Source of the DNA: an uncultured Treponema sp.
GTDB lineage: Bacteria; Spirochaetota; Spirochaetia; Treponematales; Treponemataceae
DNA length: 64,000 nt
Assembly: GCA_946547845.1 (NCBI GenBank)
Contig: CAMNPJ010000001.1
Coordinates: 18,985 to 82,984 of the forward strand
Direction of reading: 5' to 3'
A model generated the notes under the pieces. It was not told the DNA's origin, searched no databases, and saw only the letters and a program-made list of their open reading frames with translations. Below, one piece after another: positions 3,943-45,581 of the stretch. Position 1 is the first letter of the stretch; the number at the start of each line of letters is the position of its first letter. The translations under genes and the position numbers were made by a program.

Positions 3943-5116
3943 GTACGTTTCCTTCTTTCGGCCTCAAGCCCAGATGGCGGTATGCCCGTTCCGTGACAAT
4001 CCTTCCTCTGGGAGTCCGTTGCAACAAGCCGCACTGAATCAGGTACGGCTCATAATAGTCTTCCAGCGTGTCCATGGACTCGCCAATGGAAATCGCAAGG
4101 GTCTCCGCGCCAACCGGCCCGCCGGAAAAATTATTTATTATGGAGAGCAAAATCTCCCTGTCATAGTGCTCAAGTCCGAGCGAATCGATGCCCAGACGGC
4201 GCAAACCGGCGGCGGCAATCTCCCGCGTGATGGACGCGCTTTTTTCAGCCTGGGCAAAATCCCTCATGCGGCGGAGCACCCGGTTCACCACGCGCGGCGT
4301 TCCACGGGAACAATCCGCCATGAGCGCGGCAGCATCGTCGTCCACGCGCACGTTCAGGATAGCAGCGGAGCGGTGCACAATCTGCATCAGCTCTTCCTGC
4401 GTATAGAAATTAAAGCGCTGGATGATGCCAAAACGGCTGATGAGGGGCGAGCTTACCATACCGGCTTTTGTCGTGGCGCCGACCAAGGTAAAATGAGGTA
4501 TGGGAATGCGGACAGTACGAGCGGCAGCTCCCTGCCCTATCACCCAGTCAAGCTCAAAATCCTCCATCGCAATATACAGCATCTCCTCGATGGCTGGCTT
4601 TAAGCGGTGAATCTCATCGATGAAAAAAACCGTGCGCGGCGTTATGGTCGAAAGTATCCCCGCAAGGTCTTTCGGCTTGTCAAGCGCGGGCGCACTGGTC
4701 ACCTTGAAATCGGCATCAAGCTCATGCGCCGTAATCTGCGCGAGCGTAGTCTTGCCAAGTCCCGGCGGGCCTATCAGAAAAAGGTGGTCAAGCGCCTCCT
4801 GCCGCTCCTTTGCAGCCCCGATGAATATGGAGAGGTTCTCCTTTATGGCGCTCTGTCCCAAAAATTCTGAGAGGGTGGCAGGGCGCAGCTTGTTCTCCTG
4901 CGCGTCGTCGGCGGAAACACTGTCTGCACGGACGATATGCATATCAAGCTCCGCATCACGCCCACGCACAATCGTCGTCCTTCCGCCGTCCTCCATGGAA
5001 GCCCCCTGCGAGGCCTGAGCCGCCAGCTGTGCGACGATGTTCATCTCGTCCTCGCCATCATTTTTCTCCGCCCGGCCGCGGGAATACTTGCTCCGGCTGT
5101 TCACACTCCTGTTCAT
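3917..5116 (-). CDS. ruvB: Holliday junction branch migration helicase RuvB
   Basis: [12 protein letters not shown], Walker [12 protein letters not shown], RuvB-type AAA+ plus winged-helix tail. ATG 5116 overlaps the ruvA stop (TGATG). The N-terminal ~55 aa are atypical, so later ATGs (5044, 4996, 4942) are possible. Confidence 0.9.
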
Positions 5117-13792: not shown

Positions 13793-14617
13793 TCAGCGCA
13801 GGCGAGCGCCGGGGATGGTACGCCGCGCGGCAGCGACAAGCCGCTGCATATCGCTGTCACTGTACGGCGGCAGCGCATCGAAGGCGGGGTCAAGGCAGCC
13901 GCCGCCACGGAACGGGGAAAAATACCACTGCGCGTCGCAGGGCAGCAGGGCTGCGGCAGCCTCAATATCCCTTTCCCCGACCAATCCCGGCACCAGCACC
14001 GTGCGCCATTCGCGGCAGTCCGGCTCATACTCGCGGGCAAGCAGGGCGGCGGATTCCCGCAGCGCGGCAGCAAGGGCGGCGCCGTCCGGAGCCACAGCCG
14101 TGCCCGCGGCTGCCGGGAATTGTGACGGCGGCTGCACGGAGCCTCCGGGACGGGGAACAAGCTCCGCATAGCGCTGCGGCGCGGTCTTTATATCCATGGC
14201 GACATAATCAGGCCGCAGCTCCGCAGAAGCGCAGAACTGCTCCAGCAGGCGCGGCAGGGTGCCGTTGGTATCGAGCTTTATCTTATATCCGAGAGAGCGG
14301 GCGGCGCGGATAAGCTGCGGGGTCAGCGGGTTCAGCAGCGGCTCCCCGCCGGAGATGACCAGAGCGCTGAGCACGTTGCGGCGTTTTGCAAGGTGGGAAA
14401 GTATGTCCCCGGCACCTACAAAGCCTTCTCCGCCGCCATCCGGCAGGACAAGGGCGCGGTTGTAGCAGTAGGGGCAGCGCAGGTTGCAGCCCCGCAGGAA
14501 TACTGCGGCGGCAAGCCTGCCGGGATAATCGGCAAGGGTCGTGCGGACGAGCGTACCCGCCGCATCCTCCGGAAAGGGCTCAGGCAATCGCCTTGGAGCC
14601 GGAACCGAGCACGGCAT
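13793..14617 (-). CDS. nrdG: anaerobic ribonucleoside-triphosphate reductase activating protein (radical SAM)
   Basis: CNLRCPYCYN (CxxxCxxC), ISGGEPLL, KLDTNG motifs. Start uncertain: ATGs at 14632/14626/14617 or TTG 14587, all overlapping the upstream gene end. Confidence 0.8.
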   Translation of the reverse strand: MPCSVPAPRRLPEPFPEDAAGTLVRTTLADYPGRLAAAVFLRGCNLRCPYCYNRALVLPDGGGEGFVGAGDILSHLAKRRNVLSALVISGGEPLLNPLTPQLIRAARSLGYKIKLDTNGTLPRLLEQFCASAELRPDYVAMDIKTAPQRYAELVPRPGGSVQPPSQFPAAAGTAVAPDGAALAAALRESAALLAREYEPDCREWRTVLVPGLVGERDIEAAAALLPCDAQWYFSPFRGGGCLDPAFDALPPYSDSDMQRLVAAARRTIPGARLR

Positions 14618-15128
14618 CGAGCTCATCGGCATTATGGGCACGAGCGGTCTCCTGCCCGTCCGCATTGTAGAAGATGACGGTCGGCGTGGCAAAGACCCCG
14701 CGCTCGGCGGCAAGGTCAAGCCCTTCCTTCTGATCCACATTTATCTCCGTGCCGGACAGGGAAGAAGCCGCCATATAATCGCGCACCGGCGGACAGTGCG
14801 GGCAGCCGGGGCGCGTGAACAGCTCGTAGCGGGCAAGCGCCGCGGAAAAGCTTTTTGCGCCGGGCGCCGCAGCCACTGCGACGGCGGCATCCTGCACGGC
14901 AGCGGTATCAGGCACCGCAGCATCGTGGGCGGCAGAAAACGAACTGATATCGAACATAGTCCTCCTGCGGAATTCGTCAAGCTTGCCCTTGTTCCAGTTC
15001 TGCACGGCGCGGTAATAGCCCACAATACGCGCGTACACCTCAGTCTCGTCGCCGTGCACATCCGCAAGCTCTGCCTTCACCGCCTGGATTTCGGCGTCGA
15101 TATCTGCGATTGTCCGTGATTTTTCCAT
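14580..15128 (-). CDS. stand-alone NrdD glycyl-radical module fused to a thioredoxin-fold (CPHC) domain
   Basis: ETEVYARIVGYYRAVQNWNKGKLDEFRRR is the sequence that normally ends single-chain NrdD. C-terminal YELFTRPGCPHCPPV...GVFATPTVIFY fits a thioredoxin/glutaredoxin-like fold. Own RBS AAGAGAGG. Confidence 0.7.
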   Translation of the reverse strand: MEKSRTIADIDAEIQAVKAELADVHGDETEVYARIVGYYRAVQNWNKGKLDEFRRRTMFDISSFSAAHDAAVPDTAAVQDAAVAVAAAPGAKSFSAALARYELFTRPGCPHCPPVRDYMAASSLSGTEINVDQKEGLDLAAERGVFATPTVIFYNADGQETARAHNADELDAVLGSGSKAIA

Positions 15129-15158
15129 ACTATATTATGCCTCTCTTTGCCAAATTGC

Positions 15159-17279
15159 CTATGCCTTTGCGGCGAGCAGCGACGCCCGCTCCGACTCCAG
15201 CGCAAGGAGCCGTGCCCGCAGGCGCTGCTCCTTCTCTGCACGGCACTTGGGGCACTCGAACTGGGCGCCCGGCAGGTAGCCGTGCTTCTTGCAGACCGAA
15301 TAGGTCGGGCTGACGGTCACATACGGAATGCGGTAATGCTCCACGATAGCCTTCACAAGGTCGCGGCACGCACGCCAGTCCTCTATCTGCTCCCCGACAA
15401 AGGTATGGAACACCGTGCCGCCGGTGTAGCGCACCTGCAGCGCCTCCTGATGGTCGAGCGCATCAAAGAGATCCGCCGTATAGTCCACGGGGAGCTGGGT
15501 GCTGTTCGTGTAGAAAGGAGCGTCCGTTCCGCCCGTGATGATGCCGGGGAAATTCTCCTTGTCGTGGCGGGCCAGGCGGTAGCTCGTGCTTTCGGCCGGG
15601 GTCGCCTCAAGGTTGAACAGCTCCCCGGTCTTCTCCTGATAGTCCTGCATCCGCGCGCGCATATAGTCAAGCACGTCGCAGGCAAACTGCCTCCCCCGCC
15701 CGTCGGCAATGGAGACGCCGAGGAAATTCAGGCAGCATTCGTTCATGCCGCACAGGCCGATTGTGTTGAAGTGGTTGTCAAGCGTCTTCAGGTAGCGCTT
15801 TGTGTAGGGGAACAGCCCTCCGTCCAGCAGTTTCTGGATAACCTTGCGCTTGATGCAGAGGCTTTCCTTCGCGATGTCCATCAGATGGTCAAGCCGGGCG
15901 TAGAAATCCTTCTCGTCGCGCGCAAGAAAGCCAATCTGCGGAAGGTTTATGGTAACGACACCAAGGCTGCCGGTAAACTCATCGGAACCGAAAAGCCCGC
16001 CGCCGCGTTTGCGCAGCTCGCGCTTGTCAAGCCGCAGGCGGCAGCACATGGAGCGCACGTCGGAGGGGTTCAGGTCGGAATTGACGAAATTCTGGAAATA
16101 GGGAGTGCCATACTGCGCCGTCATCCTGAACAGCAGCTGGGCGTTCCGGCTGTTCCAGTCAAAGTCCTTCGTGATGTTGTAGGTGGGAATCGGATAGCCG
16201 AAGCCGCGACCGGACGCGTCGCCCTCAAGCATAAGCTCGATGAAGATGCGGTTTATCGTGTCCATCTCCGGCTGGCAGTCTCCGTAAGTGAACGCCTGCT
16301 CCTTGCCGCCCACCACGGCCTTCTCGTCCCGCAGGTCGGCGGGGCATGTCCAGTCCAACGTGATGTTCGTGAACGGAGCCTGCGAGCCCCAGCGGCTCGG
16401 CGTGTTTATGCCGAAGATAAAGCACTGCAGGCACTGGCGCACCTCGTCGTCGTCCAGGCGGTCTGCCCTGACAAACGGCGCAAGGCAGGTATCAAAAGAG
16501 GAGAACGCCTGCGCGCCCGCCCATTCGTTCTGCAGCACGCCCAGGAAATTCACCATCTGGTTCACCAGCGTGGAAAGGTGCGCCGCCGGCTTTGAGGATA
16601 TTTTGTCCGGCACCCCGCCGAGCCCTTCGCGGATAAGCTGCCTGAGCGACCAGCCCGCGCAGTAGCCGGAGAACATGGACAAATCGTGTATGTGGATGGC
16701 ACAGTCCTCGTGCGCCTTTGCGATTTCCGCGGGGTAGATGTTCCTGAGCCAGTAGTTTGCCGTCACGGTGCCGGAATTGTGCAGGATAAGCCCGCCGAGC
16801 GAATAGTTGACATTGGCGTTCTCGTTCACGCGCCAGTCGCTCTGCCGCAGGTAACCGTCCATCGTCTTGGATATATCAATCATCAGGGCGCGGGCATCCC
16901 GCATGGCATCGTGGCGGGCACGGTACAGGATATACGCCTTGGCGGTCTCCACCTCGCGGTTCTCCATGAGCACCGTCTCCACCGTGTCCTGAATCTCCTC
17001 TATGGCGGGAATCGAATGGGCGCGGCGACCCGCAAGCAGCACCCGCAGCCGCTCCTCCACCAGGTCGGTCAGAGCGCCCGCCTTGTCCGGGTCGGGATGG
17101 GAGCAGGTGGCGGCAAGCGCCTTGCCGATGGCGCGCTCAATCTTTGTGCGGTCATAATCCGCGATGTCACCGGAGCGTTTGACCACCTTCTTTATGAAGC
17201 CCTCGGTCTCCTTGTCACTGCTGGTTCCCAGAAAGCTCCGCCATTCCGGGAACACATTCTGCTCCTGCCCCCCGCTCAC
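15159..17279 (-). CDS. nrdD: anaerobic ribonucleoside-triphosphate reductase, large piece lacking the glycyl-radical loop
   Basis: ATP-cone N-terminus, MCCRLRLD finger-loop motif, C-terminal CKKHGY...CPKC Zn site, then a helical tail and TAG. GTG start overlaps the nrdR stop (GTGA). Confidence 0.9.
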   Translation of the reverse strand: MSGGQEQNVFPEWRSFLGTSSDKETEGFIKKVVKRSGDIADYDRTKIERAIGKALAATCSHPDPDKAGALTDLVEERLRVLLAGRRAHSIPAIEEIQDTVETVLMENREVETAKAYILYRARHDAMRDARALMIDISKTMDGYLRQSDWRVNENANVNYSLGGLILHNSGTVTANYWLRNIYPAEIAKAHEDCAIHIHDLSMFSGYCAGWSLRQLIREGLGGVPDKISSKPAAHLSTLVNQMVNFLGVLQNEWAGAQAFSSFDTCLAPFVRADRLDDDEVRQCLQCFIFGINTPSRWGSQAPFTNITLDWTCPADLRDEKAVVGGKEQAFTYGDCQPEMDTINRIFIELMLEGDASGRGFGYPIPTYNITKDFDWNSRNAQLLFRMTAQYGTPYFQNFVNSDLNPSDVRSMCCRLRLDKRELRKRGGGLFGSDEFTGSLGVVTINLPQIGFLARDEKDFYARLDHLMDIAKESLCIKRKVIQKLLDGGLFPYTKRYLKTLDNHFNTIGLCGMNECCLNFLGVSIADGRGRQFACDVLDYMRARMQDYQEKTGELFNLEATPAESTSYRLARHDKENFPGIITGGTDAPFYTNSTQLPVDYTADLFDALDHQEALQVRYTGGTVFHTFVGEQIEDWRACRDLVKAIVEHYRIPYVTVSPTYSVCKKHGYLPGAQFECPKCRAEKEQRLRARLLALESERASLLAAKA

Positions 17280-17737
17280 TTTTCTCCTCCTATTTTTTTG
17301 ACTTCCTCTATAAACTCATCAAGGTTGTTGAAATGCTTGTAAACGCTGGCAAAGCGGATGTAGGCAACCTTGTCTATGGAATTCAGGCGGCAGAGCACGA
17401 GCTCGCCCAAGTCGGCGGTGGAAATCTCGCGGGCGGCCTTTCCCTTCTTGTATGCCTCGTCCTCAATCTCGGTGACCAGCTGGTCTATCATGCTCATGGA
17501 GACAGGGCGCTTCTCCAGCGCGCGCTCGATTCCCTTGGCAAGCTTGTCGCTCTCAAAGGGCTGGCGCCGTCCGTCACGCTTGATGACCATGAAGGGCTTC
17601 TCCTCAATGCGCTCGTAGCTGGTAAAACGGTAGCCGCAGCCCAGACACTCGCGGCGGCGGCGGATACTCTCGCCGTTCGCCATCGTTCTGGATTCAATCA
17701 CTTTGTCGTCAAGGCTTCCGCATGAAGGGCACCGCAT
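17276..17737 (-). CDS. nrdR: transcriptional repressor NrdR
   Basis: MRCPSCGS...CLGCGYRFTSYE zinc ribbon plus ATP-cone; 153 aa. Confidence 0.9.
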   Translation of the reverse strand: MRCPSCGSLDDKVIESRTMANGESIRRRRECLGCGYRFTSYERIEEKPFMVIKRDGRRQPFESDKLAKGIERALEKRPVSMSMIDQLVTEIEDEAYKKGKAAREISTADLGELVLCRLNSIDKVAYIRFASVYKHFNNLDEFIEEVKKIGGEK

Positions 17738-17782
17738 CTGTATTCACCTCACCTGTAGCGTCATCCGCATGATATTTTTACT

Positions 17783-17812
17783 ATGATACACCACCTGTCC
17801 AGAAGAATTCAA
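17783..17812 (-). promoter_or_regulatory. sigma-70-type promoter TTGAAT-N18-TATCAT upstream of nrdR
   Basis: Minus strand TTGAATtcttctggacaggtggtgTATCAT, ~45 nt before the nrdR ATG. Confidence 0.35.
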
Positions 17813-17927
17813 CTAGAATTTTGTATGCGGCAAAAAGAATTCGCGGGGATGGAAAAGCCAGCCCCTGCATAGAAAGCAGAGATGACATACAGCCCGTACC
17901 GGAGCCGTGGAATTTTCCAGAAAACGC

Positions 17928-17956
17928 TTGCCATGCCGTGCAAAATATGCTATATT
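17928..17956 (+). promoter_or_regulatory. sigma-70-type promoter TTGCCA-N17-TATATT upstream of the Pur-alpha-like gene
   Basis: Read directly from the sequence. Leader of ~125 nt to ATG 18086. Confidence 0.45.
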
Positions 17957-18085
17957 CTTCCGGAAAACAGCAGCATGCCGCATGACGACGGCAGCTATCC
18001 ATAACAGTTTCAAAGGCAACGCTAAAAACTGAGATTTCTGGCGTTTTCCATCAGCAAATCATCTACATTACGAAGGAAGGATTTT

Positions 18086-18550
18086 ATGGGTATACGTGGT
18101 GAGCTTTATACGAATCAGGTGAATCTGGATAACCGCTCCTATTTTTTCAACGTAAAGGAAAACCGCAACGGCGACGTGTTCCTGCAGATTGTGGAGAGCA
18201 AAATCAAGGACGGGCTTGATGACCGCCGCGCCATCGTCGTCTTTGCCGACGACATGCAGAAATTCCTCGGCGGCATGGACGAGTCGCTTAAGTTCATCGA
18301 CAAAGACCGCAAGGAGAAGGCGAAGCTCCGCGCGGAGAAAAAAGCCGAGAAGGACGCGAAATATGCGGCGGGCGCCGCGGACGGCCTTGGCGGCAAAAAA
18401 ATCTACCGCCGCAAGGGCGAGAGCCGCCTGGTGGCAGAGCGCCGCTCCGAGCGGCAGGACGACGGCATCAAGCGCACGGGCCGCGTCATCCATGTGACCT
18501 CAAAGCGCAGCCCTGCCGCGCCTGAGCAGCAGCCCGCGGACGAATACTAA
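18086..18550 (+). CDS. Pur-alpha-like nucleic-acid-binding protein (DUF3276 family)
   Basis: NRSYFFNVKENRNGDVFLQIVESK pattern resembles the PUR repeat of the spirochaetal Pur-alpha homologue. Lys/Glu-rich tail. RBS GAAGGAAGG. Confidence 0.55.
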   Translation: MGIRGELYTNQVNLDNRSYFFNVKENRNGDVFLQIVESKIKDGLDDRRAIVVFADDMQKFLGGMDESLKFIDKDRKEKAKLRAEKKAEKDAKYAAGAADGLGGKKIYRRKGESRLVAERRSERQDDGIKRTGRVIHVTSKRSPAAPEQQPADEY

Positions 18551-44115: not shown

Positions 44116-44350
44116 TAGCAAAAATGGAAAAAACACGGAAATCAGTTTTGTATTCCGCTCTCAGTCAAACCCGGCTGCCCAAAAACAGGTTTCGGCGTCG
44201 CTTTTCATACGGCAAGGAAAAAGAAATGCTCCGCCAGCGGGAAATAGTGGGAAAACTGCCGGAGCATGGGTGGGAAAATGACAGGGTAGATAGTGTTTCT
44301 GCCCCATCTGCTTTACACAATAACACTAAATATAGTGGAAAGTCAAGTTT

Positions 44351-44362
44351 TTTATGCATAAA
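44351..44362. repeat. perfect 12-bp palindrome TTTATGCATAAA (copy 1)
   Basis: Read directly from the sequence; lies in the AT-rich island upstream of argF. Confidence 0.9.
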
Positions 44363-44417
44363 TTTAAAAAAAACGCAAAAAAATAGCCCCCTGTGCGCCC
44401 GTGCGATTTTTTGCATA

Positions 44418-44429
44418 TTTATGCATAAA
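44418..44429. repeat. perfect 12-bp palindrome TTTATGCATAAA (copy 2)
   Basis: Read directly; 67 bp from copy 1 and ~25 bp upstream of the argF -35. Confidence 0.9.
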
Positions 44430-44453
44430 AAGCGTATTTTTCGCATACAGGTC

Positions 44454-44481: not shown

Positions 44482-44627
44482 TAAGGAAGCGTGCAGCTCA
44501 TGGGCCACAGTTTCCACGGCCTGCACGCAAAAAAATCATCGCAGCGCGTCTTTTCAGGCGAAGCGGAAGAACGGAGAAGCCCCCGCCGCGCAGGCACCGG
44601 GCTTTGCGGCCGCAGGAGCATAGGACT

Positions 44628-45581
44628 ATGGAAGCAGAGAAATTCGACAGCCCCTTCAAGGGAAGGAGCCTTTTGAACTGGATAGACTGGACGCAGGAAG
44701 AAATCAGCCAGATTCTTGACTGGGCATTCCTTGTCAAAAAACAGGCGCATGCAGGGGAAATCCACCAGCGCTTCCTCGGCAAGACCATCGCGCTCATCTT
44801 CGAGAAGCGCTCCACGCGGACCCGCTCGTCTTTTGAGACGGCCTTCGGCGAGGAGGGCGGGCACCCCGTCTTTATGTCCACGCAGGATATACAGCTGGGC
44901 GGCAAGGAAAGCGTGCGCGACACCGCACGCGTGCTCGGCAGGATGTTCAGCGCGATAGAATTCCGCGGCTACAAGCAGGAGCACGTCGAGCAGCTGGCAA
45001 AATACTCTGGCGTGCCCGTCATCAACGGGCTCACCGACGACTACCACCCCACGCAGGTGCTCGCCGACATCATGACGCTCAAGGAGCAGTTCGGCACGCT
45101 CAAAGGCCTGACGGTCTGCTTCTGCGGGGACGGGCGCAACAACATGGCGCGCTCGCTCATGCTTATCTGCGCAAAATTCGGCATCAATTTCTCGATGTTC
45201 TGCCCCAAGGAGCTTTCCCCGGCAGAGGACATCCTGCGCATCTGCGCGCCCTTCGCGGAAAAAACCGGCGCAAAAATCACTGTTTCCGATCAAAAATCAG
45301 TTGTCAAAAACGCAGATTGCCTTTATACTGATGTATGGGTTTCTATGGGCGAAGAGGCACTCAAGGACGAGCGCGTCAAGCTGCTCAAGCCGTTCCAGGT
45401 AAACAAGGATCTGATGGCTGAGACCGGCAAGCCGTCCACCATATTCCTGCACTGCCTTCCGGCCGTCATGGGTCAGGAGGTAACGGAGGATGTCTTCGAA
45501 AGCGCCGCCAGCAAGGTATGGGACGAGGCCGAAAACCGCAAGCACACAATAAAGGCTATACTGTTAGCCCTTATAAAATAA
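44628..45581 (+). CDS. argF: ornithine carbamoyltransferase
   Basis: STRTR, HPTQ, HCLP motifs. ATG 44628 follows CAGGAG. Confidence 0.85.
   Translation: MEAEKFDSPFKGRSLLNWIDWTQEEISQILDWAFLVKKQAHAGEIHQRFLGKTIALIFEKRSTRTRSSFETAFGEEGGHPVFMSTQDIQLGGKESVRDTARVLGRMFSAIEFRGYKQEHVEQLAKYSGVPVINGLTDDYHPTQVLADIMTLKEQFGTLKGLTVCFCGDGRNNMARSLMLICAKFGINFSMFCPKELSPAEDILRICAPFAEKTGAKITVSDQKSVVKNADCLYTDVWVSMGEEALKDERVKLLKPFQVNKDLMAETGKPSTIFLHCLPAVMGQEVTEDVFESAASKVWDEAENRKHTIKAILLALIK

Follow-up and report, generated by a model that had tools for sequence, protein, structure and literature searches.

A conserved two-gene class III ribonucleotide reductase locus in Treponema, with the predicted glycyl-radical segment on its own polypeptide

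The 64,000-nucleotide stretch of DNA from an uncultured Treponema sp. that we analysed (GenBank assembly GCA_946547845.1, contig CAMNPJ010000001.1, positions 18,985 to 82,984; hereafter the window) carries a class III ribonucleotide reductase (RNR) locus in which the nrdD gene is divided in two. The large gene codes for a 706-residue catalytic protein that ends shortly after its predicted Zn ribbon, and the glycyl-radical segment is predicted on a second protein of 182 residues, where it is joined to a thioredoxin-fold domain; the gene order on the minus strand is nrdR, large nrdD, small open reading frame (ORF) and nrdG. Comparison with other Treponema genomes shows that the split is real, being neither a sequencing error nor a pseudogene, and that it is ancient and conserved across a Treponema clade. 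We consider it likely that the two genes encode one functional class III RNR, an obligate two-subunit enzyme to which the radical loop is supplied in trans. Class III RNRs and other glycyl-radical enzymes are described as single chains, whose C-terminal radical domain has to swing out of the barrel for activation and which are destroyed when oxygen enters.

A class III reductase gene divided in two across Treponema

The large protein is recognized by the models NF006126 (1062 bits, cutoff 548), TIGR02487 (467.6 bits, cutoff 326.35) and Pfam NRDD (PF13597, E=3e-173), and it is composed of an ATP cone, a barrel and a Zn ribbon. It ends 27 residues past CPKC, with a C-terminus that reads ...ECPKCRAEKEQRLRARLLALESERASLLAAKA (in detail, ...SVCKKHGYLPGAQFECPKC followed by RAEKEQRLRARLLALESERASLLAAKA), and its TAG stop lies at 15161..15159. 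The spacer proper (15158..15129) contains the Shine-Dalgarno sequence GAGAGG, and the 182-residue ORF (14580..15128, minus strand) begins with MEKSRTIADIDAEIQAVKAELADVHGDETEVYARIVGYYRAVQNWNKGK. No RxxGY motif follows the Zn ribbon on the large polypeptide; the motif sits instead on the next ORF as RIVG37YY, the system as a whole supplying it in trans, and the predicted radical glycine, Gly37, is encoded at 15018..15020 (minus strand). The first-pass annotation of this DNA, made from its letters, had described the ORF ends, the stops, the spacer and the ribosome-binding site accurately to the base. Its placement of the breakpoint, between the Zn ribbon and the glycyl-radical loop, agrees with the profile matches: on the 684 positions of NF006126 the large protein covers 2-654 and residues 26-61 of the small protein match 648-683, and on the 562 positions of Pfam NRDD the two proteins span 1-532 and 531-562, respectively. 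Residues E30-R40 of the small protein are invariant among 36 aligned homologues. A Pfam scan of the small protein returned the NRDD tail and redoxin families only, with no Gly_radical match, and neither Pfam nor NCBIfam holds a model for the small protein as such. In NCBI records the large gene carries the name of a complete reductase and the small gene is labelled 'hypothetical protein'.

A search of a 5.8-billion-protein collection with the small protein (E<=1e-3) found at least 409 homologues; all 120 that were listed are 174-214 residues long, about nine tenths of them 174-190, and the named ones among those listed are Treponema 'hypothetical proteins'. When all 50%-identity cluster representatives were searched with the family profile, at least 145 clusters matched at E<=1e-30 and 577 at E<=1e-10, and both RIVGY and CxxC were present in 142 of the 150 top matches. 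With one genome taken per GTDB species, a relative of the small protein is encoded in 383 genomes. We analysed the best 80 of these 383 loci, which include T. bryantii, T. socranskii, T. porcinum and the complete genome of T. parvum, with isolates among them. Upstream DNA was present in 78 of the 80 loci, each from a different Treponema genome, and all 78 show the same split, with an adjacent large gene that has no radical segment. In every one of them the upstream NrdD ORF ends 24-34 residues past ECPKC, and where the contig holds the whole gene its stop-to-stop length is 702-756 codons; the frame that holds the radical motif measures no more than 176-242 codons from stop to stop (80/80 loci). 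An ORF with the radical S-adenosylmethionine (SAM) motif CN[LIFM]RCPYC, taken as nrdG, lies 3' of the small gene in 76/76 loci, and nrdR stands upstream on the same strand in 74 of the 80. The spacers measure from -4 to 357 nucleotides (nt), with frame offsets of 0, 1 and 2 in 26, 24 and 28 loci, respectively. These near-equal offsets, together with the range of spacer lengths, indicate two independent genes and not a frameshift, a nonsense mutation or recoding.

Taken by itself, the window could be read as a single-chain nrdD broken by stops in this assembly, whether as a pseudogene, by a frameshift or by an assembly error. Its two ORFs lie in the same frame only 30 nt apart, which is the pattern that a nonsense mutation leaves, and among the metagenomic proteins there is one, P0401, that arose as a read-through artefact of a frameshift. 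The comparative data refute this explanation, to which we leave next to no probability: the break recurs at the same place in all 78 independent loci, isolates and the complete T. parvum genome included; frames are random, spacers extend to 357 nt and in many cases contain promoter elements, and the ribosome-binding sites are strong; the two helices that flank the break, a C-terminal 'tail' on the large protein and an N-terminal 'head' on the small one, are conserved extras missing in unsplit enzymes; and the large-subunit homologues, of ~701-723 residues, are 75-94% identical across the clade, which speaks against a pseudogene. The worry over an assembly error that the first-pass annotation had voiced is dismissed by these data, and the two-gene arrangement that it had suggested looking for in related spirochaetes is what the Treponema loci show.

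Two candidates for other arrangements were rejected. P0401 (476 residues, from an ENA contig), considered as a single-chain Treponema NrdD, has out-of-frame residues in place of its CPKC, ahead of the small-subunit sequence; gene callers can thus hide the split. P0179 (255 residues; L083:4001-4768), considered as a fusion of the glycyl-radical domain (GRD), thioredoxin and NrdG, comes from a long-read contig and is probably an indel artefact, because its neighbouring genes on that contig are all fragmented. A further protein, P0251 (320 residues), is predicted to be a small GRD-thioredoxin subunit that runs in frame into NrdG.

The two pieces might also be rejoined into one chain, by stop read-through, by recoding or by split-intein trans-splicing, and the in-frame position of the window ORFs and the conserved residues V-H-G-T at the boundary between head helix and GRD would suit such rejoining. 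However, read-through in the window would have to pass two in-frame stops, TAG and TAA, and in the relatives the three frame offsets are about equally frequent and the spacers contain promoters. Tail and head together amount to ~55 residues, which is far too small for an intein fold; moreover, the first residue after CPKC is neither Cys nor Ser, and the position of the C-intein Asn is occupied by Gly. We regard rejoining as extremely improbable and continue with two separate subunits, whose features are collected in Table 1.

Table 1. Position of the genes and predicted elements of the split nrdD locus in the window
Feature	Positions	Strand	Evidence
nrdR, transcriptional repressor of RNR genes	17276..17737	-	TIGR00244, 179.8 bits (cutoff 124.65); Pfam Zn_ribbon_NrdR and ATP cone
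nrdD-large, class III RNR catalytic subunit without glycyl-radical segment, 706 residues plus stop	15159..17279	-	NF006126; Pfam NRDD
ATP-cone domain, residues 30-124	16908..17192	-	Pfam PF03477, E=1.9e-19
GYCAGW with conserved bottom-face cysteine C207	16650..16667	-	aligns with the T. maritima Cys125 segment (residue named in PMC4493059)
Finger loop M411-C412-C413-R414, double Cys plus Met	16038..16049	-	counterpart, by alignment, of SCCR in T. maritima NrdD
NLEATPAE with Glu558	15591..15614	-	aligns with FNIEQVPAE of T. maritima NrdD
Predicted Zn ribbon, C663-x2-H666 ... C676-P-K-C679	15243..15293	-	counterpart, by alignment, of the Cys/His cluster at the C-terminus of NrdD structures from T. 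maritima and P. copri
Tail helix of the large subunit (C-terminal), residues 680-706	15162..15242	-	missing in unsplit relatives
TAG stop, 30-nt in-frame spacer with second stop (TAA) and GAGAGG ribosome-binding site	15129..15161	-	read from the sequence
Head helix of the small subunit (N-terminal), residues 1-25	15054..15128	-	conserved heptad positions
Predicted glycyl-radical segment, residues 26-59, GDETEVYARIVG37YYRAVQNWNKGKLDEFRRRTMF	14952..15053	-	last 30-36 positions of NRDD, TIGR02487 and NF006126
Variable low-complexity linker, residues ~60-99	14832..14951	-	length and sequence vary among homologues; pLDDT <50 for residues 68-95
Thioredoxin-fold domain, residues 100-174, C109-P-H-C112-P-P and T148-P149 (cis-Pro) loop	14607..14831	-	AlphaFold2, Foldseek, profile
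nrdG-type radical-SAM activase	13793..14632	-	TIGR02495 (NrdG2), 124.5 bits, just below the cutoff of 131.15; Pfam Radical_SAM, E=1.4e-16

Junction helices, active site and the thioredoxin-fold domain

Relative to unsplit enzymes, each protein has gained a helix at the break, the large one a tail after CPxC and the small one a head before G-T-E-T-EVY. In the 78 loci the tails are 24-34 residues long and carry Leu, Ile, Val, Met or Phe invariantly at positions 8, 12 and 15 and in 92% at position 22 (spacing 4-3-(4)-3). In the heads of the 78 pairs, counted back from the TEVY motif, the same class of residues occupies positions -22, -19, -15 and -8 in all cases and -5 in 99% (spacing 3-4-3-4-3). 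The mean net charge is +1.8 for the tail and -3.2 for the head.

The two window proteins were modelled with AlphaFold2 as a joined chain, by literal concatenation, with an alignment (A9) that included unsplit bridging homologues. In this model the barrel, the thioredoxin domain and the two junction helices are predicted with confidence, and overall it superposes on solved NrdD structures with a TMt of 0.6-0.75 (Foldseek); in sequence, the large protein is only ~20% identical to the NrdD of T. maritima. The junction helices span residues 677-703, with a predicted local distance difference test (pLDDT) score of 82-96, and 713-728, with values up to 94-96, and the head helix reaches 94-95 in the joined chain compared with 70-81 when the small protein is modelled alone. 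The radical segment appears as a beta-hairpin, at low confidence. The model fits a helical hairpin that is cut at its tip and that would return the radical segment beside the Zn ribbon. The idea that the new termini could zip the two pieces together, put forward by the first-pass annotation, is supported, though not proven, by the conserved heptad positions, the opposite charges and the confidently modelled helices of the joined chain.

A small radical-domain protein beside an activase also recalls GrcA/YfiD, the spare part of pyruvate formate-lyase (PFL), a likeness that had been pointed out on first reading. On this alternative, the small protein would rescue a full-length NrdD from another locus after its cleavage by oxygen, and the truncated large gene would have to be explained separately. 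As with GrcA and PFL, the radical domain forms a protein by itself, encoded beside an activase, and the small gene often has a stress-relevant promoter of its own. But the adjacent large subunit has no radical segment at all and needs one in trans, the two genes are always neighbours (78/78 loci), and the matched heptad helices are found only on these two partners; the 80 best loci come from 80 genomes and show no second similar radical segment, although no whole-genome NrdD search was made. The likeness therefore stands for a separate radical module and falls for the spare-part role: since no radical loop is present on the large subunit, the small protein would be an obligate subunit and not a spare, and we think a GrcA-like function very unlikely.

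To place the proposed two-subunit enzyme among the NrdD subclasses, we used the criteria for NrdD1-3 in PMC4493059 and PMC9669993 (the definition of Wei et al. as summarised in PMC4493059). NrdD2 enzymes have a third Cys and a Glu and are thiol-dependent, and some members keep a Met (PMC4493059; PMC9669993). By alignment, the residue set of NrdD2 is present in the large subunit, with C412/C413, E558 and M411, plus C207; Cys, Glu and Met, the reducing-face residues that the first-pass annotation had proposed to inspect, were thus all found. The Glu of T. maritima NrdD that matches Glu558 is residue 495 (counted on the alignment), and P. copri NrdD has Leu there. Residues C663, H666, C676 and C679 are, by alignment to NrdD structures, the predicted Zn ribbon.

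In the AlphaFold2 model of the small protein alone, residues 100-174 have a pLDDT of ~90 or more and follow the order beta-alpha-beta-alpha-beta-beta-alpha, with strands at 100-105, 125-130, 150-154 and 160-164 and helices at 112-121, 134-142 and 167-174. The top Foldseek matches of this domain in the PDB are all thioredoxins, with a probability of 1.00, and the family profile matches the Mj0307-type thioredoxin 1FO5 and the glutaredoxin 7C10. Family models respond less: the Pfam Glutaredoxin match is weak (23.5 bits, cutoff 22.9), and Thioredoxin_2, Thioredoxin_3, TIGR00411 and other NCBIfam redoxin models score under their cutoffs. The thioredoxin fold that had been noticed in the last ~90 residues of the protein is thus backed by weak but above-threshold sequence evidence and by strong structural evidence. 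C109, P110, C112, P113, P114, P149, T150, V151, R163 and H165 are invariant in the 36-member alignment. Of these, R163 and H165 lie outside the canonical redoxin motifs, as does the nearly invariant C-terminal alanine (...xA-COOH).

Given the third Cys and the Glu of thiol-dependent NrdD2 in the large subunit, the tethered domain would most simply be a dedicated reductant that re-reduces the enzyme. It could also be that the enzyme has two subunits as proposed, but that the thioredoxin-fold domain is a docking or structural module, a partner of NrdG or a redox sensor, and that formate gives the electrons. This would suit the Met kept in MCCR, which is associated with formate-dependent thiosulfuranyl chemistry (PMC9669993, PMC4493059), the JGI annotation of relatives as 'ribonucleoside-triphosphate reductase (formate)', the weak Pfam and NCBIfam redoxin matches, and the lack of recognisable glutathione-binding motifs in our reading of the 36-member alignment of the domain. 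Against it stand the CPxC pair, the two prolines that follow and the cis-Pro loop, all invariant in that alignment, as well as the CxxC of 142 of the 150 top profile matches (50% clusters) and, in the large subunit, the third Cys and Glu by which thiol-dependent NrdD2 enzymes are defined. We judge a domain with another role to be unlikely, though deserving of some weight, and retain the dedicated reductant as the preferred reading.

Origin and regulation of the two-gene arrangement

The single-chain relatives suggest how the split arose. P0237 is an unsplit NrdD, N-terminally truncated, that reads ...CPHCG-ADAEVYSRIVGYYRSV..., followed by a linker and ...CPNCPPV...AAPTV. Among its 120 nearest relatives listed, whose source names include Lachnospiraceae, Oscillospiraceae, Clostridia, Erysipelotrichaceae and others, 99 have a post-radical tail of at least 60 residues with CxxC, mostly CPNC. 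These sequences indicate that single-chain ancestors already had the thioredoxin-fold domain attached behind their radical segment. The first-pass annotation had the radical-bearing piece tethered to its own putative reductant as part of the new architecture; the fusion is confirmed, but it is not special to the split, being inherited from widespread single-chain NrdD-GRD-thioredoxin proteins.

The gap between Zn ribbon and radical segment is 4 residues in 116 of 119 unsplit relatives, in agreement with the earlier statement that in single-chain NrdD the radical segment directly follows the Zn site. The three others have an insertion at exactly that gap, of 26 residues in P0399 and P0400 and of 46 residues in P0397 (L081:1-1547), which comes from an NCBI 'Treponema sp.' metagenome-assembled genome and has nrdG downstream. 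The insertion is charged (CPxC-AAEERRKMEQ...-GTRTEVY) and sits where the Treponema genes are split. P0397, P0399 and P0400 look like intermediates between the single-chain and the two-gene forms. In a neighbour-joining tree of the ~290 last barrel/Zn-ribbon columns, calculated with no bootstrap, the split forms make up one clade, and its sister group contains the insertion forms.

A real gene fission at the Zn-ribbon/glycyl-radical boundary is strongly supported by these sequence comparisons. The simplest history would begin with the thioredoxin fusion, continue with a charged insertion between Zn ribbon and radical segment, and end with a single fission in that insertion. What had first been called a clean fission at a domain boundary therefore keeps the fission, on the strength of the 78 loci and the tree, and loses the boundary: compared with single-chain enzymes the helices are inserted sequence, so that the break falls inside an added element and not simply at an old domain boundary.

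The spacers between the two genes were searched for the NrdR-box palindrome ACACwAnATnTwGTGT with at most 3 mismatches. At least one box was found in 52 of the 58 spacers of at least 60 nt, compared with 5% of shuffled spacers, and many matches are exact; an example is ACACTATATTTAGTGT, and such boxes occur for instance in loci L003, L016 and L030 (in those of the loci L001-L080 with a full upstream flank, the spacer is located at ~4750-5000). Where two boxes are present they are in tandem 41-43 bp apart in 19 of 23 cases, and TTGACA lies between them in the examples read. From the frequency of the boxes in long spacers, the small gene and nrdG appear, in most species, to have an NrdR-controlled promoter of their own, separate from that of nrdR-nrdD.

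The window itself belongs to the short-spacer minority, and its 30-nt spacer contains no NrdR box; nor was a box found, with at most 4 mismatches, within the 460 nt upstream of its nrdR-nrdD (17738-18200). The only strong NrdR-box-like palindrome of the window lies at 44323-44338 (ACACTAAATATAGTGG), ~280 nt upstream of an aspartate/ornithine carbamoyltransferase gene (44604-45581, plus strand). It is followed at 44340-44440 by AT-rich repeats on TTTATGCATAAA / TTGCATATTTATGCATAAA, and these elements resemble another operator.

As for the neighbouring genes, the nrdR stop overlaps the nrdD start. The start of nrdG is ambiguous, with an ATG at 14632, 14626 or 14617, and the gene shares ~40-55 nt (14580-14632) with the 3' end of the small ORF, read in another frame. 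The NrdG protein has an Ala/Pro-rich insertion.

Proposed mechanism and relation to known systems

Putting these observations together, we propose that the insertion became a helical hairpin and that the fission then opened this hairpin at its tip. The large subunit would contribute the basic tail helix and the small one the acidic head helix; the two would pair, probably in antiparallel orientation, and so return the radical segment to the side of the Zn ribbon, from where Gly37 could reach the finger-loop cysteine. NrdG would install the radical on the small subunit, possibly before docking, and after turnover the active-site cysteines would be reduced again by the tethered thioredoxin-fold domain. 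When oxygen attacks a glycyl-radical protein, the chain breaks at the radical glycine. Since the cleavage falls there, the damage would be limited to the small subunit, a cheap and separately expressed cartridge of 182 residues.

Several points weigh against this proposal. The binding of the two proteins to each other is a prediction from sequence and from the joined-chain model, in which an artificial loop of 9 residues ties the two helices together. In the same model the Gly loop (residues 741-760) has a pLDDT of 38-48 and the finger loop of <50; given these low values, the model says nothing on docking. The covariation between tail and head, measured as mutual information, is not significant (permutation p=0.12), with a suggestive antiparallel register. 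Because the loop tethers the helices and the covariation falls short of significance, we infer the hairpin and do not claim it as established. The finger-loop Met linked to formate chemistry is kept, so that formate may be the reductant and the thioredoxin domain may have another role, and no re-reducing partner, be it thioredoxin reductase or another protein, was identified. Finally, the tree behind the proposed history has no bootstrap values.

A more far-reaching version would make this the first glycyl-radical enzyme with its radical cofactor obligately on a separate, exchangeable subunit, charged off the enzyme by NrdG, docked through the hairpin, served by its own thioredoxin and replaced after oxygen exposure through the NrdR-controlled promoter. 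We put this complete scenario forward tentatively and with more doubt than belief. If true, it would give host-associated treponemes a cheap recovery of anaerobic deoxynucleoside triphosphate synthesis after oxygen pulses. A radical domain on a polypeptide of its own would offer a natural system in which to study docking, activase recognition, off-enzyme activation and damage repair, questions that are hard to approach with single-chain enzymes, and the junction of radical carrier and putative reductant bears on how thiol-dependent class III RNRs are re-reduced. If the small protein is the obligate subunit that we propose, metabolic reconstructions of Treponema from genomes at present overlook an essential subunit. 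The locus is common to many oral, gut and rumen treponemes, and the contact between the subunits could therefore serve as a selective target.

No description of a split or two-subunit class III RNR was found in the searchable full-text literature, in keeping with the first-pass annotation, whose author knew of no such architecture for RNR. For Treponema NrdD, or for NrdD-thioredoxin fusions, the same literature yielded a single database note of a grx::nrdD fusion, reported without biochemistry. A 2026 review of glycyl-radical enzymes knows spare-part proteins only for formate lyases.

The closest known relatives are the single-chain NrdD proteins with a thioredoxin or glutaredoxin domain. They belong to the same NrdD family, with the MCCR finger loop and the NLEATPAE motif, and behind their EVYxRIxGYYRxVxNWNxGK come a linker and a thioredoxin-fold domain with CPNC, nrdG lying downstream; they differ in being one polypeptide with a gap of 4 residues and no tail or head helix. 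The NrdD2 enzymes of Neisseria bacilliformis and Thermotoga maritima (PDB 4COI/4U3E) share the third finger-loop Cys and the conserved Glu, and their reductant is a thioredoxin-type protein (PMC9669993; PMC4493059). These are single chains that use a free thioredoxin, whereas in Treponema a separate radical subunit has the redoxin-like domain as part of its own chain; unlike the T. maritima enzyme, the Treponema enzyme also keeps the finger-loop Met.

GrcA/YfiD is likewise a small separate protein with a glycyl-radical loop and is relevant to oxygen damage; it is charged by the cognate radical-SAM activase and inserts its loop into the large barrel subunit. It duplicates, however, a domain that PFL still has, and acts only after damage, whereas the Treponema protein is homologous to the radical segment of NrdD and comes with a zipper helix and a thioredoxin-fold domain. 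Neither of the two features that define GrcA is found here, because the small protein has no homology to the radical domain of PFL and its partner has no radical domain.

Among other RNRs, the split class II enzyme NrdJa/NrdJb of Pseudomonas aeruginosa and of the Thermus phage phiYS40 is also a catalytic chain made from two consecutive genes, with a C-terminal module (Zn finger / redox-relay region) on the second polypeptide, and the proposed means of association is an additional element of the first piece. That enzyme depends on adenosylcobalamin and has no glycyl radical, and the part set apart is the reducing C-terminus, not the radical cofactor; the resemblance is one of gene layout only. 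In the class I Grx-ATP-cone-NrdB fusion of Facklamia ignava a redoxin is similarly fused to the radical-bearing RNR subunit, and the fused domain has been shown to act as the reductant of the enzyme. There, in contrast, the radical-bearing subunit is a ferritin-like NrdB and the redoxin an N-terminal, glutathione-dependent domain of the GrxC type. In T4-like phages and in Aeromonas phage phiAS4, nrdD also occurs in more than one piece, but the interruptions are group I introns, inteins, homing endonucleases or recent fragmentation, the break is not at the junction of Zn ribbon and radical segment, and there is no conserved two-subunit design. Across these comparisons we rate the parts of the Treponema locus as all familiar, and as new the placing of the radical cofactor on an obligate subunit by itself, the zipper junction and the separate regulation.

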